Source: Elainellaceae cyanobacterium (GTDB lineage Bacteria; Cyanobacteriota; Cyanobacteriia; CAZCXK01). From it: a DNA stretch of 25,972 nt. Below the pieces are notes generated by a model. It worked only from the letters and a program-made list of their open reading frames with translations. It ran no database searches and was not told where the DNA came from. Below are positions 3,747 through 25,972 of this stretch, piece after piece. How positions within the stretch are numbered: the stretch's first letter is position 1; every line of letters begins with the position of its first letter. The stretch spans positions 1 to 25,972 of the forward strand of contig JBNPEG010000178.1 in NCBI GenBank assembly GCA_051117555.1, read 5' to 3'. A program made the position numbers and the translations under genes.

Positions 3747-3819
3747 CCTGAAACTATCGACAACTGTGATTAGCAACCCGATCCAAGCACCACAGAATTT
3801 ACTCATAAAGGGAACGGAG

Positions 3820-4818
3820 ATGAAGATGCAAAATACCGAAAGAATGCAGGGAATCATCGCAGAAGCGAGAAAAGTTACCTACGTGGAGGCTGCCCGGTGG
3901 GGTAAGCATCGGGGGTGGCGGTATGTTCTGGGATTAGTCGTCATCTTCTTTGTGGGGCTGGTCGTCAATGGCATCACCGTCCCGCGCATCGCGTTCTTGC
4001 TCGGCGGTCAGGAGGCGCTGGCGGCGTTCAATCGGCTGGATTACGCTGCACTCGGCCTCGTGGGGGGCTTCGTTGCGTTCAGGGCGAGTTTTCCGTTCTT
4101 CCTCGCGGGAATCCTGATCGCCGTCACCTTCGTTCACCAGCGTCATCCCCGGACGCTGGTCACAGCGCGGGAAAAGATTAGCTGGCGGCGGGTCGGTCAT
4201 GGGTTTGTGGCGTGGTTCGTGCCATTCTGGCTGATCGCTGGGCTGGGACAGTACTTCTTCTATCCCGACACTTTCTCGTTTAACTTTGACCTCACAACGT
4301 TCGCGCTCTTCGTGCCGATCGCACTGATTTTCGTTGCGATCCAGACCACCACAGAGGAGCTTTTCTTTCGCGGCTACATTGTGCAGGGCGCGAGTATTGT
4401 TTGGTCTAACCGCGTCTTTCTGGCGCTGGTGCCAGCCGTGATCTTCGCCCTGGCGCACCTGCTCAACCCGGAGGCGAGTGCTGGCGGTTGGCTCACGGTC
4501 TTCATCAACTACTTCCTCGTTCCGGGTCTAGTGTGGACCGTGGTTTCGTTGATTGACGGAACCACTGAACTCGCCATCGGCGTACACTTCGCGAACAACA
4601 TCGGCGGCAATCTCTTGATGGGCGTAGCCGGAAGCGACGTGACCGGAAGCGTCGTGACTCCGCCGACTCTATTCACAGTCAGCGAGTTCCACGCGACCTA
4701 CACGGCTCTATCAATGCTGGTTGTCGTACCCGTGTTTCTGGCGATCGCCTACAAGGTGTTCAAACCCGATGGAGTATCCAAACCCGTTTCCCAAAGCCAT
4801 CGGAGTGGTCGTTGGTAA
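3820..4818 (+). CDS. CPBP/CAAX (Abi) family intramembrane metalloprotease
   Basis: EELFFRGY, FALAH and HFANN motifs; multi-pass hydrophobic; GGAG RBS. Confidence 0.92.
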   Translation: MKMQNTERMQGIIAEARKVTYVEAARWGKHRGWRYVLGLVVIFFVGLVVNGITVPRIAFLLGGQEALAAFNRLDYAALGLVGGFVAFRASFPFFLAGILIAVTFVHQRHPRTLVTAREKISWRRVGHGFVAWFVPFWLIAGLGQYFFYPDTFSFNFDLTTFALFVPIALIFVAIQTTTEELFFRGYIVQGASIVWSNRVFLALVPAVIFALAHLLNPEASAGGWLTVFINYFLVPGLVWTVVSLIDGTTELAIGVHFANNIGGNLLMGVAGSDVTGSVVTPPTLFTVSEFHATYTALSMLVVVPVFLAIAYKVFKPDGVSKPVSQSHRSGRW

Positions 4819-4857: not shown

Positions 4858-5598
4858 ATGATTAAGCATAAAAACTCTAAGCTGCGACTGTTTGGGCTGC
4901 TGTGGTTGGCAGGCATGGCTGGGGTGATGACCCTGGGGTTGCTGCCTTTGCCCGTGCTCCCAGAGGGTGCCCCACCTGCCGCCGTGGTCAGACTACTGAT
5001 GCTGGTGCAGCCTACGGTTTTGGTGTCGGTAGCGGTACTGATAGGCGTGCTCTTGACTCCCCAGCTAGGACTAATGGCACCGGGGGCAGAGGCGCTGGCT
5101 GTGGGGCGATCGTGGCGGCAAGCCATGGTTCCTCAACTGTTGCCCGGTGTGGTGGGTGGGTTGATCAGCGGCGGACTACTAACGGCGATCGCCCTGCTGT
5201 CTCGCCCGCTGCTGCCACCCGCCTATGGGGCGGCTGAGCCCACGCCGCTGCTAGCGCGATTTCTCTACGGCGGTATCACCGAAGAAATTCTGATCCGCTG
5301 GGGACTGATGACACTGCTGCTATGGCTAGGCTGGCGATTTGGGCAGCAGCGCCAGGGTAAACCCCAGACCCAATGGGTGGTCGTCGCCATTGCCGTCTCC
5401 TCCCTGTTGTTTGCCGTGGGCCACTTGCCCGCTGCGATCGCCCTGGGACTGCCGTTGACCCCACCACTACTGGGGTTCTTGCTAATCCAAAACTCTTTGT
5501 TTGCAGGGGTTGCGGGGTATTTGTTCTGGCGCTACGGGCTAGAGGCCGCCATGATCGCCCACCTGACGGTTCATGCCGTGCTGGCTCTCATCGGCTGA
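4858..5598 (+). CDS. CPBP/CAAX family intramembrane metalloprotease
   Basis: EEILIRWG, FAVGH and AHLTVH motifs; GAGG RBS. Confidence 0.9.
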   Translation: MIKHKNSKLRLFGLLWLAGMAGVMTLGLLPLPVLPEGAPPAAVVRLLMLVQPTVLVSVAVLIGVLLTPQLGLMAPGAEALAVGRSWRQAMVPQLLPGVVGGLISGGLLTAIALLSRPLLPPAYGAAEPTPLLARFLYGGITEEILIRWGLMTLLLWLGWRFGQQRQGKPQTQWVVVAIAVSSLLFAVGHLPAAIALGLPLTPPLLGFLLIQNSLFAGVAGYLFWRYGLEAAMIAHLTVHAVLALIG

Positions 5599-16537: not shown

Positions 16538-16622
16538 AAGAATCTGATAAATCACCGTAAGAATCTGAAAGAAGTTGAGTGTTGGAACTCACTACACTCA
16601 AGCTAGCTAAAACAAAGAAAAT
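16538..16622 (+). promoter_or_regulatory. Putative AraC-activated promoter
   Basis: Direct repeat AAGAATCTGA at 16538 and 16559 (21-bp period) immediately after the AraC stop codon; TACACT -10 at 16593. Confidence 0.7.
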
Positions 16623-16632
16623 TCAGGAGTTA

Positions 16633-17382
16633 ATGAGCATGTTTAAAGTGTCTTCTAACTCCCCGCAGGAGCCAGAAAAGACCACCGCTGGGTCCTCTAC
16701 TCAGCCTTCACGCAACCGGTTCACATATCCAGGTTTGTCGGAGGGCATTGTGGGTCTTATCGTCTTTAGCATCGTCGGGTACGGAGGCGGTGCGTTGCTC
16801 GCAATGCGCGGACTTGATCCCGTCGTCCTCGGTCTGATTTTCACTGCCCTTTCTGGCATCGCTAGCATCGCCGGGTTTGCTGCCGCTGCGCTGCTACGCA
16901 TCCGTTCCCTCAGCGCCTTCAGCGTCCGCTCGGTCTCCCGGCGGTGGCTGCTGATCGGGGTCGGAGCAGGGCTCGTCGCCTTCGTGGTCAAGGGTCTGGC
17001 GGTTTTGGTCTACATCGCCATCACCGGGGACAGATCCACCCCCCAGTCAGTGTACGCCGAAGGGGGCAGCGGCGGGGTACTGTCCTTGATCCTAGCGACG
17101 CTGTTTCTCGGTCTCCTCACACCGCTCGGCGAGGAGCTGCTCTTCCGGGGCGTGGTTGCCAATGTGTTGCTGCGCCACGGGCCAATCTTCGGGGTCGTGA
17201 GCAGCGCCCTGATCTTCGCCCTCATGCACGGCATCAATATCGTTTTTCCCGCAGCTCTGGTAATGGGCCTTGTTGGTGCCGATCTGCTACGGCGCAGCGG
17301 CTCGGTCTGGCCCGCCGTCGTCGTCCACGTCGTCTTTAACCTGCCCACGGTTCCGGCACTGGTGTTTGCTGGTATGGGCTGA
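16633..17382 (+). CDS. CPBP/CAAX family intramembrane metalloprotease
   Basis: EELLFRG, FALMH and HVVFN motifs; AGGAG RBS; GC-rich. Confidence 0.92.
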   Translation: MSMFKVSSNSPQEPEKTTAGSSTQPSRNRFTYPGLSEGIVGLIVFSIVGYGGGALLAMRGLDPVVLGLIFTALSGIASIAGFAAAALLRIRSLSAFSVRSVSRRWLLIGVGAGLVAFVVKGLAVLVYIAITGDRSTPQSVYAEGGSGGVLSLILATLFLGLLTPLGEELLFRGVVANVLLRHGPIFGVVSSALIFALMHGINIVFPAALVMGLVGADLLRRSGSVWPAVVVHVVFNLPTVPALVFAGMG

Positions 17383-23029: not shown

Positions 23030-23275
23030 ATGAGTGTTGTAATCCCTGATGACATCCTCCACGCAACCAAAATGACTGAGGATGAATTGAAGCTAGAAAT
23101 CGCTATCATGTTGTATAAGCAACAAAGAATTAGTAGCGGCAAAGTCCGCGCTTGGACTGGGTTAACGGTTCTCCAATTCCAGCACGAATTGGCAAAACGA
23201 GGACTGTACATCAACTATGATGTGGAAGATTTTCAATCGGACGTTGAAACCCTACAATCATTAGGTTTGTTGTGA
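23030..23275 (+). CDS. UPF0175 family protein (putative antitoxin)
   Basis: ELKLEIAIMLYKQQRISSGK..FQHELAKRG..YDVEDFQSD; overlaps the next gene by 4 bp. Confidence 0.88.
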   Translation: MSVVIPDDILHATKMTEDELKLEIAIMLYKQQRISSGKVRAWTGLTVLQFQHELAKRGLYINYDVEDFQSDVETLQSLGLL

Positions 23276-23766
23276 TCGTTGTGAGTGATACTTCGCCCAT
23301 CACCAACCTTACTGCCATTGGTCAGTTAGATCTGTTACGCCAACTCTATACAAACATCGTTATTCCCATAGCCGTCTATAACGAAATGGTGGCCGTAGAT
23401 ACTGTTGTACCTGGTGCAGTTGAAGTACAAACTCTCTCTTGGATTCAAACTCAAGTGGTTGCGGATGCTCAGAGTGTCATAGATCTACAAAGCAGCCAAG
23501 ATGACATTGATTTAGGCGAAGCTGAGGCGATCGTTCTGGCACTAGAACTCGGTGCAGACTTACTCTTAATGGATGAGCGTCGTGGTAGAAGATTGGCTGA
23601 AAATTGCGGACTCCGCGTTACTGGATTACTTGGTGTTTTATTGCAAGCCAAACGCAATGGTTTCATTACATCTGTTAAACCTATCATGGATCAATTGATA
23701 GAGGAAGCTGATTTTCGAATCAGTAGTCAATTGTATGCAACTGTCCTAAAAACTGCAGATGAGTAG
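23272..23766 (+). CDS. DUF3368 PIN-like domain protein (putative toxin)
   Basis: VVSDTSPI, DLGEAEAIVLA, LLMDERRGR and TGLLGVL motifs. Confidence 0.9.
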   Translation: MIVVSDTSPITNLTAIGQLDLLRQLYTNIVIPIAVYNEMVAVDTVVPGAVEVQTLSWIQTQVVADAQSVIDLQSSQDDIDLGEAEAIVLALELGADLLLMDERRGRRLAENCGLRVTGLLGVLLQAKRNGFITSVKPIMDQLIEEADFRISSQLYATVLKTADE

Positions 23767-23800: not shown

Positions 23801-24032
23801 GGCGATCGCACTAGGGGATTTTGTCTATACGGGCGATCGCATGACGAGTTAACAAATGGGCGATCGCCCTAGGGATTTTCGTCTGTATATTCAATTGCCA
23901 GGTTCGTTGACATCATGTGCGATCGCACCTTTCCATGGAATGCACTGCTGTCAAGACATAAAATACAGGTGCGGCGCTCTATACAGTTGGGCGATCGCAC
24001 TGAAAGTTTTTGTCTGTACGGGCGATCGCACT
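23801..24032 (+). repeat. Right copy of the direct repeat plus HIP1-delimited short units
   Basis: HIP1 at 23802, 23833, 23860, 23919, 23991 and 24022. Related units: actaggggattttgtctatacgg, cctagggattttcgtctgtat, actgaaagtttttgtctgtacgg. Confidence 0.92.
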
Positions 24033-24327
24033 GTCTAGTCACCGTCTCTCTAAAACAATCGCTTTCTTAATCCCCTCCATCTGAGGTGATCGCTCCAATC
24101 AATAATTACTGTAATCGCATCGTCTAATCAACATCTGGTATGAATCGCACTTGTGTTTATGTAGCACTCTACTTTGCAAAGGTGTTTGTGCAAAGCATGT
24201 ATCTCATATAAAGATGTCAAGATTTGCAACCGCACTGCAGTTGAACAATCTTAAGGAGAATCTTCGCCGCTACACGCGAGTAACTTGCAAAATTGTAAAG
24301 TTTTTTTAATTTTCAGAACTTCATTCT

Positions 24328-24368
24328 GATAGTACACTTGATCATAGAAGTAATTCATGTGTACTATC
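24328..24368. promoter_or_regulatory. Inverted repeat upstream of the small coiled-coil ORFs
   Basis: GATAGTACAC(T)TGA ... TCA(T)GTGTACTATC: 14-bp arms with 1 mismatch. Confidence 0.55.
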
Positions 24369-24381
24369 TCAAGGTTTCTCC

Positions 24382-24516
24382 ATGGCAAAGCAACAAAGGG
24401 CGAAAGACCAGGCTCGTAATGCGCTTAAGAAAGTTGTATCAGAAAAGCAGCAGACAGAGAGGCGTATAAGAGATTTAGACGATCAAATCAAAAAATTGAG
24501 TGGTAACGGTAGTTAA
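24382..24516 (+). CDS. 44-aa coiled-coil microprotein (not in the ORF track)
   Basis: MAKQQRAKDQARNALKKVVSEKQQTERRIRDLDDQIKKLSGNGS*; AAGG upstream; clear heptad pattern. Confidence 0.6.
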   Translation: MAKQQRAKDQARNALKKVVSEKQQTERRIRDLDDQIKKLSGNGS

Positions 24517-24612
24517 TCTAATCTGACCTTTACTGAACTTTTAACTTGATAATCCGGATCTTTGTTAAATGGCTGGCAATTAGTAAATATAACTAATTGC
24601 CAGGTTTTCAGT

Positions 24613-24780
24613 ATGTTTGAAGATGAATTTCACCGCAGATTGAAAGCTCTTCTAGATGAGAAGCATGACACCCAAGTTAAGCTTATTAGGCTGACTCGGG
24701 ATGCTGATCAAGCTAAGCGTCTCATTAAACGGCTTGAGGATTTGAATAGGGAAATTGGCGAAATGCAAGATAAAATATGA
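24613..24780 (+). CDS. 55-aa coiled-coil microprotein
   Basis: MFEDEFHRRLKALLDEKHDTQVKLIRL...LIKRLEDLNREIGEMQDKI*; AGGT upstream. Confidence 0.65.
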   Translation: MFEDEFHRRLKALLDEKHDTQVKLIRLTRDADQAKRLIKRLEDLNREIGEMQDKI

Positions 24781-24794
24781 TCAAATAACTGAGT

Positions 24795-25709
24795 TTAAAC
24801 ATTAAATAGCCTATTTTCTAAATAATCTAAATAGGACTCTACTTCTTTGAACAATAGTTGGCTTATGGTTTCAGGGATTTTGCCTTTAATAAGCTCAAAA
24901 AACTTCTGATAGACATCAGCATCAGCATTCTCATAAATAGAATCGTCAGCTAGAGATGGAAGTAAACGTGGTTCATCTAAATAAATAAATTCTTGAGTAC
25001 GTACCGCATAATAGACCAACTCTAAGTAGCTTTCGATTTCTAGATAAAATCTTTCGATTCCATCATCATGATCTTTTGCTTCTCTGCTGAGATTAGGAAA
25101 CGGCTTTAGAGCAAGACTTCCATATTTCCTTGCCAAAGTTTTGCGGTTTGACAACCAAATCAGTATCCTGTTGCGATCAGGATCATCAACCTTGATTTGC
25201 AATTCTAAATCTCTTATTTCCTCTTCAAGTTCTTTTAACTTTAATTCCAGATTTGTCTTCTCAAAGCGTAACTCCTCTAGCTTTTTTTCAACGAGTTTTT
25301 CTCCTGTGATTCCCCAGACTAGTTGACTCATGGGATTAGGACTTCGCCTGCGAAAGTCGACCCACATTAAGCCTTCTAGAAAAATTGGAAGTTCTGGCTG
25401 TTGTGGAGCATCTTTTAGAAGAACTGGAATTACAGGACAATGATTTTTGACAAATTTGCGTAGAAAAGCATCTATTTCTTGCCTCTGCCAAGGACCTACA
25501 GCATTTTTGCCGACAAAAACAGCTGCCGCTTGAATTTCTGATATTTGTTGCTCTAATACTTGCTGCCATGGAACACCGGGTCGGAATTCCCATTCATCTA
25601 ACCATGGTCGAATTCCTAGTTTTTTTAGTTGTTCTGCAATATATAGAATTTCAGGCTTGTCTTCGCTGTTATGGCAAAGGAAAACATCATACTTTGATTG
25701 CTCGGTCAT
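24795..25709 (-). CDS. TIR domain protein (TIR - coiled coil - unknown helical C-domain)
   Basis: YDVFLCHNSEDK..PWLDEW..GPWQRQEI (Glu78 at the usual catalytic position); coiled coil at about aa 144-173; AT-rich. Confidence 0.9.
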   Translation of the reverse strand: MTEQSKYDVFLCHNSEDKPEILYIAEQLKKLGIRPWLDEWEFRPGVPWQQVLEQQISEIQAAAVFVGKNAVGPWQRQEIDAFLRKFVKNHCPVIPVLLKDAPQQPELPIFLEGLMWVDFRRRSPNPMSQLVWGITGEKLVEKKLEELRFEKTNLELKLKELEEEIRDLELQIKVDDPDRNRILIWLSNRKTLARKYGSLALKPFPNLSREAKDHDDGIERFYLEIESYLELVYYAVRTQEFIYLDEPRLLPSLADDSIYENADADVYQKFFELIKGKIPETISQLLFKEVESYLDYLENRLFNV

Positions 25710-25972
25710 TTTCAGCCTGCCTTTGACTAGTATATTAAGCCAGCAATTTTTCCCAAGGGTTTGGACATACTATCCTAGATTAGGTTTTGGCCCTCCAAAC
25801 TCACTTTTCCACATCAAGTAAACCGAGTTAGCTCTAACGTAATGTTTCGTAACTACTCAGCTTAAAAGATAGTAAGGATTTGCGTAACCGAGGTAAGTTA
25901 GCGGTAGGTTTGATAGCTATAAGGACAACGATGAGGCAACCCTTTTGAGTGAGACCAGTCCCAAGAAACTCA

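Follow-up and report, generated by a model that had tools for sequence, protein, structure and literature searches.

What are two genes for proteins of 44 and 55 residues doing tail to tail with the gene of a Toll/interleukin-1 receptor (TIR) domain protein? The locus that raises this question lies at the right end of contig C197 (JBNPEG010000178.1) of an Elainellaceae cyanobacterium; the window analysed here is this entire contig, 25,972 nucleotides long, from a 6.06-Mb genome (G000). According to the open reading frame (ORF) listing, the TIR gene (24795-25709, minus strand) encodes 304 residues, and two plus-strand frames point toward it: ORF1, the gene for microprotein A (24382-24516, 44 residues), and ORF2, the gene for microprotein B (24613-24780, 55 residues counted from the ATG, or 72 if the frame began at a TTG at 24562). 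The original prediction saw here a candidate new TIR system, with microproteins that mimic a coiled coil of the TIR protein. Our results retain the three-gene unit, but indicate that the two small genes accompany not the TIR domain but a C-terminal module, made of a long helix and a phycobiliprotein-fold domain, that many different effectors share. Our preferred reading, held tentatively and rated just short of an even chance, is that the locus is an undescribed three-gene conflict cassette of the abortive-infection type, in which A and B would bind the module and hold the effector inactive.

The anatomy of the block agrees with the prediction throughout. The genes converge, with 14 bp (24781-24794) between their stop codons (that of ORF2 ends at 24780 and that of the TIR gene starts at 24795), and the block is AT-rich, with a GC content of 0.34-0.39 (24001-25500) compared to 0.489 genome-wide.

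An AlphaFold2 model of the TIR protein (pLDDT 91.7 at full length, from 49 sequences, and 91.6 for the module alone, from 11) contains, in order, the TIR domain, a helix at residues 139-171, and an all-helical domain at residues 177-303. The long linker helix (25197-25295, minus strand; extent from DSSP on the model) is the coiled coil of the original prediction. The domain after it (residues 174-304; 24798-25190, minus strand; pLDDT 96-98) has the globin-like fold of phycobiliproteins. Among the Foldseek matches listed, ranks 1-48 are all phycobiliproteins, phycobilisome chains or a fluorescent protein (TM ~0.55, E ~1e-2). VIA-align gives a Z-score of 13.7 and an rmsd of 2.8 Å over 123 residues against the phycoerythrin alpha chain 1b8d_A. 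In this Foldseek-independent structure search, ApcE and allophycocyanin come next (Z 11.5-12.4) and non-haem globin sensors (the N-domain of Rv2242, pXO2-61, globin-coupled sensors and RsbR) reach Z 8-11.5, values to be read with the caveat that for helical folds a Z below ~13 can be generic.

Sequence comparisons point the same way. Five module relatives (P0003, P0047, P0049, P0055 and the module protein of locus L028) pass the cut-off of the phycobiliprotein model PF00502, to which the window protein itself gives no match at E up to 1, and in many genomes a module profile picks out true phycobiliproteins (E 1e-6 to 1e-8; confirmed by PF00502 at 1e-28 to 1e-45). Since the matches of the relatives and the retrieval by the profile both agree with the structure, they corroborate the fold assignment. 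The Cys-Ala-Arg-Asp of the bilin-attachment site aligns with Phe-Tyr-Leu-Glu in the window protein, the Phe being near-invariant in the module. The bilin-binding cysteine is thus lost, and the domain is a pigment-less derivative of a phycobiliprotein. The X-Y helices of phycobiliproteins mediate the pairing of alpha and beta chains. The module helix occupies the position of these N-terminal helices, a single long helix replacing the X-Y hairpin. The module therefore shares with phycobiliproteins and with the non-haem globin sensors (RsbR N-domain, pXO2-61, globin-coupled sensors) a fold, detectable sequence homology, and a helical element before the globin core, and differs from phycobiliproteins in its attachment site, its single helix, and its fusion to death effectors.

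A word-indexed search of 5.8 billion proteins with residues 135-304 retrieved only the query. When the same residues were run exhaustively with phmmer through 1.84 billion representatives, 65 homologues came up at E ≤1e-3 (22 at ≤1e-10), and across these 65 the helix belongs to the conserved C-terminal module. N-terminal to the constant module stand 12 Pfam families, two of them EAD adaptors: TIR (24 proteins), Trypsin_2 (6), CHAT (3), SEFIR, caspase, patatin, DUF676 esterase, PNP_UDP_1, GT4-conflict and pentapeptide repeats (1 each), EAD8 (2) and EAD10 (1). A further 22 of the 65 have no Pfam match besides the module's own PF00502, and some of these are fragments. The alignments show the helix and the globin-fold domain to be one constant module with swappable N-terminal domains. 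This module would act as the sensor or regulator of whatever effector it carries.

In the window the effector is a TIR domain at residues 9-130 (25320-25685, minus strand; Pfam TIR_2, PF13676, E 2.6e-26, 92.9 bits against a cut-off of 28). Its closest solved relative is the NAD+ hydrolase AbTIR (E 5.6e-9). Glu78, named as catalytic in the original prediction, aligns with the Glu of the W-x3-E motif ('WTNYE') in AbTIR chains 7uwg and 8g83, which we take to be the catalytic residue of AbTIR. This alignment supports Glu78 as the candidate catalytic residue, and the domain is a predicted NAD+-cleaving effector. Near relatives of the TIR domain (44-67% identity) bear quite different C-terminal parts. 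A paralogue in the same genome (contig C81, a 443-aa ORF; locus L002) has a TIR domain 59% identical to that of the window joined to another C-terminal region, as do loci L004 and L007. These fusions show that the TIR module is often shuffled.

Among 400 other cyanobacterial genomes, a search with the single module sequence located 13 places in 12 genomes and an 11-row profile 25 strong places in 21 genomes. Outside cyanobacteria the search covered a plasmid collection, a phage collection and viral contigs alone, and the module matched nothing in these. Given that the module is truly homologous to phycobiliproteins, and that the genome has a full antenna gene set (17 PF00502 matches, 16 of them over the cut-off) as well as two NblA genes (contigs C43 and C42), the cassette could be a non-immune phycobilisome accessory, whose module docks an enzyme on the antenna and whose small proteins are linker-like or NblA-like remodelling cofactors. 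We regard this as very unlikely: the N-terminal partners are classic death or immune effectors and EAD adaptors rather than antenna enzymes, the bilin-binding cysteine is gone, and the module is sporadic (22 of 401 genomes), its locus AT-rich and strain-specific. A DNA search with the locus found no match in 60 relatives, two genomes of the same genus among them. The microproteins themselves do not match the NblA model. Run genome-wide, this model (PF04485) finds the two NblA genes elsewhere and neither ORF, so that we rejected an NblA identity, and 15 microproteins compared with Pfam (E up to 0.05 or 1) showed no NblA match and no recognised DNA-binding domain.

If the module is what recurs, do the small genes recur with it? 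On the first 13 loci, tblastn with ORF1 gave matches in L024 (56% over 36 residues, E 9e-10), L023 (6e-9) and L021 (2e-5), and weaker ones in L022 (5e-4) and L025 (0.03); ORF2 matched in L022 and L024 (9e-5). All of these matches lie convergently downstream of the module gene, in a constant order of A (distal), B (proximal), and effector stop. The co-occurrence proposed in the original prediction is therefore seen, both small ORFs standing beside the homologous big gene at other cyanobacterial loci. A metagenome scan with a four-row alignment as query added L034-L037, L039 and L040, which have A+B pairs, or B alone at a contig end.

We examined 22 module loci other than that of the window, out of the 25 strong places. 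Six of them (L021, L022, L023, L024, L025 and L033) have a type-1 A/B pair, next to effectors of the TIR (four loci), CHAT and Trypsin_2 families. A type-2 pair of mutually homologous proteins of 55-62 residues is present at eight loci (L031, L050-L053 and L055-L057), mostly beside EAD10-module proteins; EAD10 itself was found in L027, L050-L052, L055 and L056. The proximal and distal type-2 copies are paralogous and share the consensus MTP..RF...L..L..QGC..D.A.....Q.Y...ADEAD.LL.EKQ (twelve sequences from seven loci were aligned and the remainder judged by eye). A third type of pair, found in L028 (2044-2211 and 2324-2488, both minus strand), consists of paralogous proteins of 55 and 54 residues that both end in LREEDW, beside a 246-residue module protein whose C-domain is over the PF00502 cut-off. 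Three loci (L058, L059 and L061) have a single convergent ORF of 82-99 residues, three (L029, L030 and L054) have no small ORF, and L027 is cut by a contig end. Thus, two small convergent genes are present at 15 of the 21 informative loci. The single ORFs of ~98 residues in L058 (1132-1428, plus strand) and L059 (2025-2324, minus strand), which stand in place of the pair, are alike by eye and may be a fused or alternative partner.

The microprotein families split with the module subtype: type 1 with TIR, trypsin and CHAT effectors, type 2 with EAD10, and type 3 with L028. No relationship between the type-1 and type-2 microproteins was detected (hhalign probability 1.9% and 0.5%). One genome (G160) has two cassettes, one with a TIR and one with a trypsin effector, and a separate A/B pair accompanies each. 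Because the A family adjoins a trypsin effector, and because 12 control loci (69.6 kb) with TIR relatives that bear other C-terminal regions hold no A, B or module match, the partners go with the module, not with TIR; comparison of gene neighbourhoods shows this linkage to the C-terminal helix and phycobiliprotein-like domain. The predicted linkage of the small ORFs to the big gene is thus upheld in other genomes, but it is a linkage to the C-terminal module. That the cassette is specifically a TIR system did not survive the comparison, as family A stands beside a trypsin-type effector in L033 and positional equivalents stand beside CHAT and EAD10. No ORF of at least 70 residues other than the effector is shared between any of the 24 loci (flanks of ~1.5-2.5 kb). 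In the window's own genome, contig C80 (5675-6984) carries an ORF of 368 residues that matches PF00502 below threshold (21.1 bits) and, 27 bp on and near the contig end, a convergent 58-aa helical ORF; the two may form a more remote cassette built in the same way.

Microproteins this short can be chance frames in an AT-rich spacer, with the TIR protein acting alone. The codon score of ORF1 resembles that of spurious frames, the word-indexed search of 5.8 billion proteins retrieved only ORF1 itself and nothing for ORF2, and neither has paralogues in its own genome. The early blank searches were overturned by the exhaustive phmmer search and by tblastn on the fetched loci, both of which found homologues. 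ORF1 aligns without internal gaps to 8 homologues at other loci (26-48% identity), and ORF2 to 9 proximal ORFs of other loci (13-24% identity). Microprotein A is predicted to form one amphipathic helix, its family core being L..L(V/I)(V/I)EKQQ....I.....QI, and microprotein B is helical with the family core L......L...I.(R/E)LT.(D/N).......L..L..IE..L.

When the six-frame segments of at least 30 residues from the genome (n=111,776) were searched with a family-A model built without the window, ORF1 ranked first (E 1.2e-8; runner-up 0.016). A family-B model built without ORF2 likewise placed ORF2 at the top of the 111,776 segments, at E 0.17, and ORF2 has the expected position between gene A and the effector stop. 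In leave-one-out tests, with relatives of at least 60% identity removed, ORF1 was recovered at E 4.5e-9 and seven other A members at E 2e-7 to 8e-5, among them the A of L033 beside the trypsin-type effector (1.3e-5); the A of L025 was marginal (0.19). Seven non-window B members were recovered at E 1e-10 to 6e-6, and the window B was marginal (0.095). Where pairs align well, dN/dS ranges over 0.07-0.20 in family A and 0.15-0.38 in family B (pS 0.38-0.72), rough Nei-Gojobori values for short genes from which misaligned or too-diverged pairs were left out. Being conserved in place, with low dN/dS, and ranked first genome-wide by family models, A and B are real: we conclude from these comparisons that they are protein-coding genes under purifying selection. 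The conservation of the small ORFs anticipated in the original prediction is accordingly found, with homologues at the same convergent position in other cyanobacterial genomes. Chance frames are scarcely credible beside conservation of both position and sequence, dN/dS below 0.4, and top ranks genome-wide, and identities of 26-48% argue against the homologous loci being assembly duplicates of one source.

Several other matches were dismissed. The best in-genome BLAST matches of ORF2 (ORFs on C8 and C218, E 0.03-0.04) are alignments to an unrelated non-helical region, and a second in-genome match to family A (C212, E 0.016) is a tandem repeat of the DELKAQID type. The best ESM Atlas scores, 0.86 for ORF2 and 0.79 for ORF1, are both under the 0.9 lead level.

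Does either microprotein copy the helix of its large neighbour? The gap-free alignments quoted in the original prediction exist: residues 144-168 of the TIR protein and 15-39 of ORF1 share 7 of 25 residues (ungapped BLOSUM62 score 40), and an 18-residue stretch of the TIR protein shares 7 of 18 with ORF2 (score 24). Among the 9,698 ORFs of at least 80 residues in the same genome, however, the TIR protein ranks only 50th as a partner of ORF1 and 665th as a partner of ORF2, so that 49 and 664 other ORFs match better, and for single sequences the likeness is not clearly above that of generic coiled coils. At the profile level, family A aligns to the module helix in the predicted register with an hhalign probability of 33% (P 4.5e-4), compared with 1.9% in a control of family A against an unrelated microprotein family. 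When the four heptad blocks were permuted in all 24 orders, the native order scored best (21.6; next 20.4, 19.7 and 19.3). Family B gave nothing against the module helix (hhalign 3%). The claim of mimicry is thus borderline for A and finds no support for B, and it is suggestive that A may mimic the module helix. Eukaryotic microProteins such as Id and LITTLE ZIPPER titrate larger proteins through a copied dimerisation helix. Family A would be like them in being a tiny protein that resembles the oligomerisation helix of its partner, and the pair differs from them in that this homology is only suggestive for A and absent for B.

Known systems resemble the cassette in part. No PADLOC model covers it, in line with the candidate new system of the original prediction; there are domain-level TIR hits and a partial bSEFIR match only. 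bSEFIR is reported as a single-protein anti-phage defence of Bacillus sp. NIO-1130 that was shown by experiment to deplete NAD+ (Millman et al. 2022 preprint; Osterman et al. 2024 preprint). Both proteins have an N-terminal TIR-superfamily NADase and a helical C-terminal region. The PADLOC model of bSEFIR (PDLC03957) matches residues 92-238 of the window protein (E 3e-11, 41.8 bits), and the SEFIR-bearing member of the module family matches it at 3.5e-51. However, the window match spans only positions 135-277 of the 412 in the model, other TIR members of the module family do not match it, and the window protein has TIR_2/TIR and no SEFIR at Pfam E up to 1, where the selection rule for bSEFIR was an N-terminal SEFIR match stronger than the TIR match (Millman et al. 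2022 preprint). With TIR instead of SEFIR and a partial model match, the window protein falls outside bSEFIR. The accessible parts of these preprints describe bSEFIR as a single protein and mention neither microproteins nor a phycobiliprotein-like domain. Thoeris is represented by weak matches to ThsB models (E 2e-3 to 5e-2), and no SIR2, SLOG or Macro domain occurs among the 24 large ORFs of the window, in a contig that ends 263 bp upstream of the TIR gene.

A closer parallel in design is offered by the EAD-linked conflict systems of Kaur, Burroughs, Iyer and Aravind (eLife 2020, PMC7159879; 2021, PMC8195603), effector-swapping systems enriched in cyanobacteria. Like these, the module family joins a constant region to alternative effectors (TIR, trypsin, caspase/CHAT, patatin, PNPase) or to EAD8 or EAD10. 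The constant region of EAD10 in those papers is TPR + GreA/B-C + PIN (PMC7159879, PMC8195603), unlike the helix and globin-fold module, and the ORFs of at least 70 residues common to the 24 loci include no associated NTPase (STAND, GTPase or MoxR). The main texts of PMC7159879 and PMC8195603 do not contain 'phycobilisome', 'phycocyanin' or 'globin', nor does the 2020 text contain 'small protein' or the 2021 text 'microprotein'. Literature searches combining phycobilisome or phycobiliprotein with TIR domain, anti-phage or effector terms returned no description of the cassette.

The range of effectors and the connection to bSEFIR suggest a role in abortive infection. In our preferred reading, A and B would be dedicated partners of the module, transcribed convergently to it from a promoter inside a conserved palindrome. 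They would bind the long helix of the module, its globin-like domain, or both, and keep the effector non-oligomerised and inactive, much like an antitoxin or a dominant-negative microProtein. Infection would remove or titrate A and B or halt their supply, or else a trigger would bind the globin-like domain; the freed modules could then self-associate, so that TIR domains assemble and NAD+ is depleted.

The sign of the interaction could also be the opposite. All of the evidence that links A and B to the module applies equally if the microproteins act positively, either as sensor or adaptor baits for a phage factor or as co-assembly subunits that nucleate the active oligomer. Diversification of the microprotein families with the module subtypes is what would be expected of recognition components, and the two cassettes of G160, each with its own pair, fit as well. 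In known toxin-antitoxin systems, a small partner transcribed apart from its toxic effector more often inhibits it, and on this ground we think a positive role unlikely, though by no means far-fetched.

Regulation may equally be sought in the DNA around the small genes. A palindrome precedes gene A (24328-24368; arms 24328-24341 and 24355-24368, 13 of 14 positions or 93% complementary), which bears out the inverted repeat of the original prediction. Its right arm holds, in our reading, a -10-like TACTAT 14 nt before the ATG of gene A. In 6 of 9 type-1 loci (the window, L021, L023, L033, L035 and L036) the core ATAGTA..TACTAT occurs upstream of gene A at a distance of no more than 60 nt, and L022 and L024 have degenerate copies; across type-1 loci the ATG follows the end of the right arm by 13-18 nt, and the arms are 2 to 25 nt apart. 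In the 6.06-Mb genome the loose pattern occurs four times and the strict ATAGTAC..GTACTAT here only. A palindrome with the same core (ATAGTACATAGATACTAT, inside a longer perfect palindrome) lies on contig C171 (4272-4300), ~50 nt upstream of an unrelated 134-aa ORF, and may be a second site for the same putative DNA-binding factor.

The A-B spacer (24517-24612, plus strand) contains TCCGG (24553-24557) and, directly before the ATG of gene B, a 12-bp perfect hairpin with a T-run (24573-24603). In a DNA alignment of 8 loci the spacer has a mean column identity of 56% and TCCGG is invariant. RNAalifold finds no consensus structure in the spacer, so that the hairpin of the window is unsupported as a conserved RNA structure. 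The stop-to-stop gaps of the homologous loci are 14, 14, 19, 20, 41, 66, 80, 180 and 369 bp. No terminator was found in the 14-bp gap of the window, and the two transcription units therefore probably overlap at their 3' ends.

These elements would suit control mainly at the level of DNA or RNA, where A, B or both bind DNA and autoregulate at the palindrome, or convergent transcription across the 14-bp gap silences the effector gene through antisense or transcriptional interference, and no stable protein complex forms. The palindrome does overlap a -10-like box 13-18 nt before gene A, the spacer shows non-coding conservation, and in 7 of 9 loci the stop codons are only 14-80 bp apart, no terminator having been found in the gap of the window. 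Purifying selection on both peptides, which are amphipathic helices without a recognised DNA-binding domain, argues against this reading; gaps of 180 bp (L022) and 369 bp (L036) mean that the 3' overlap is not conserved, and a dimeric operator of fixed geometry would not be expected to have arms between 2 and 25 nt apart. We therefore consider such control, as the main mode, quite improbable. Autoregulated antitoxin operators carry palindromes. In this respect the cassette resembles type II toxin-antitoxin or abortive-infection systems, with a predicted toxic enzyme adjoining small partner genes and a palindrome at their promoter. It differs in having two partners, which are convergent rather than co-transcribed and lack a recognised DNA-binding fold.

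Several observations weigh against a cassette held in check by A and B. The module may be able to do without its partners, given that three loci (L029, L030 and L054) lack a small ORF. The membership of ORF2 in family B is marginal on sequence alone (E 0.095-0.17), and the proximal ORFs of L033 and L025 are positional equivalents only (E 510 and 67). The codon usage of ORF1 is like that of spurious ORFs of this genome and that of ORF2 is borderline. The resemblance of A to the module helix is weak (33%), a convergent layout is unusual for toxin-antitoxin pairs, and more cassette parts may lie upstream of the TIR gene, the locus being at a contig end. Domain logic and the bSEFIR link are all that points to a role in defence, which we infer on that footing. 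A circumstance that we count in favour is found immediately to the left, where a UPF0175 gene (81 residues) overlaps the start of a 164-residue DUF3368 (PIN-like) gene (23030-23766); these neighbours look like a toxin-antitoxin pair.

If the cassette acts as we propose, it belongs to a defence family overlooked by annotation pipelines, since the products of two genes out of three are just 44-62 residues long and its sensor is a repurposed antenna protein. The family would be a natural experiment in modularity, in which one module and its microprotein pair are joined to at least ten effector domains or to EAD adaptors, and it seems suited to a study of what restrains bacterial TIR, protease and lipase effectors and what activates them. 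Given the partial link to bSEFIR, some 'single-gene' defences may have been cloned along with unannotated microprotein genes. As a long shot, the module may be an integrated decoy of the light-harvesting antenna, coupled to death effectors and guarding against cyanophage factors (e.g. phage NblA-type proteins) that attack or remodel phycobilisomes, with the microproteins as the cognate clamp that would silence it until something engages the decoy. Such a module would be a bacterial counterpart of the integrated decoys of plant NLRs, microProtein-type inhibitors would be a new layer in prokaryotic immunity, and cyanobacteria, whose phage defence is little explored, would offer a testable guard or decoy case.

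The block sits at the right end of the contig, which stops 263 bp upstream of the TIR gene. A weak sigma-70-like promoter match (25729-25756, minus strand; 9 of 12 positions) lies upstream of the TIR gene; such sites are no more numerous in the region than in shuffles, and this one is a consensus match only. On the same strand, an open frame (25834-25971) reaches past the contig end and may be a fourth gene of the cassette. The sole Rfam match is a sub-threshold U2 (18.2 bits, E 0.9; the gathering score is 46). Between the toxin-antitoxin-like pair and the cassette, a 41-nt direct repeat occurs three times (23801-24031; 71-100% identity), bounded by GCGATCGC (HIP1-type) palindromes, and these repeats may be an insertion boundary or a miniature repeat element. 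Elsewhere in the 26-kb window, amid metabolic and regulator genes, are three genes for Rce1-like CAAX proteases (3766-4818, 4858-5598 and 16579-17382).

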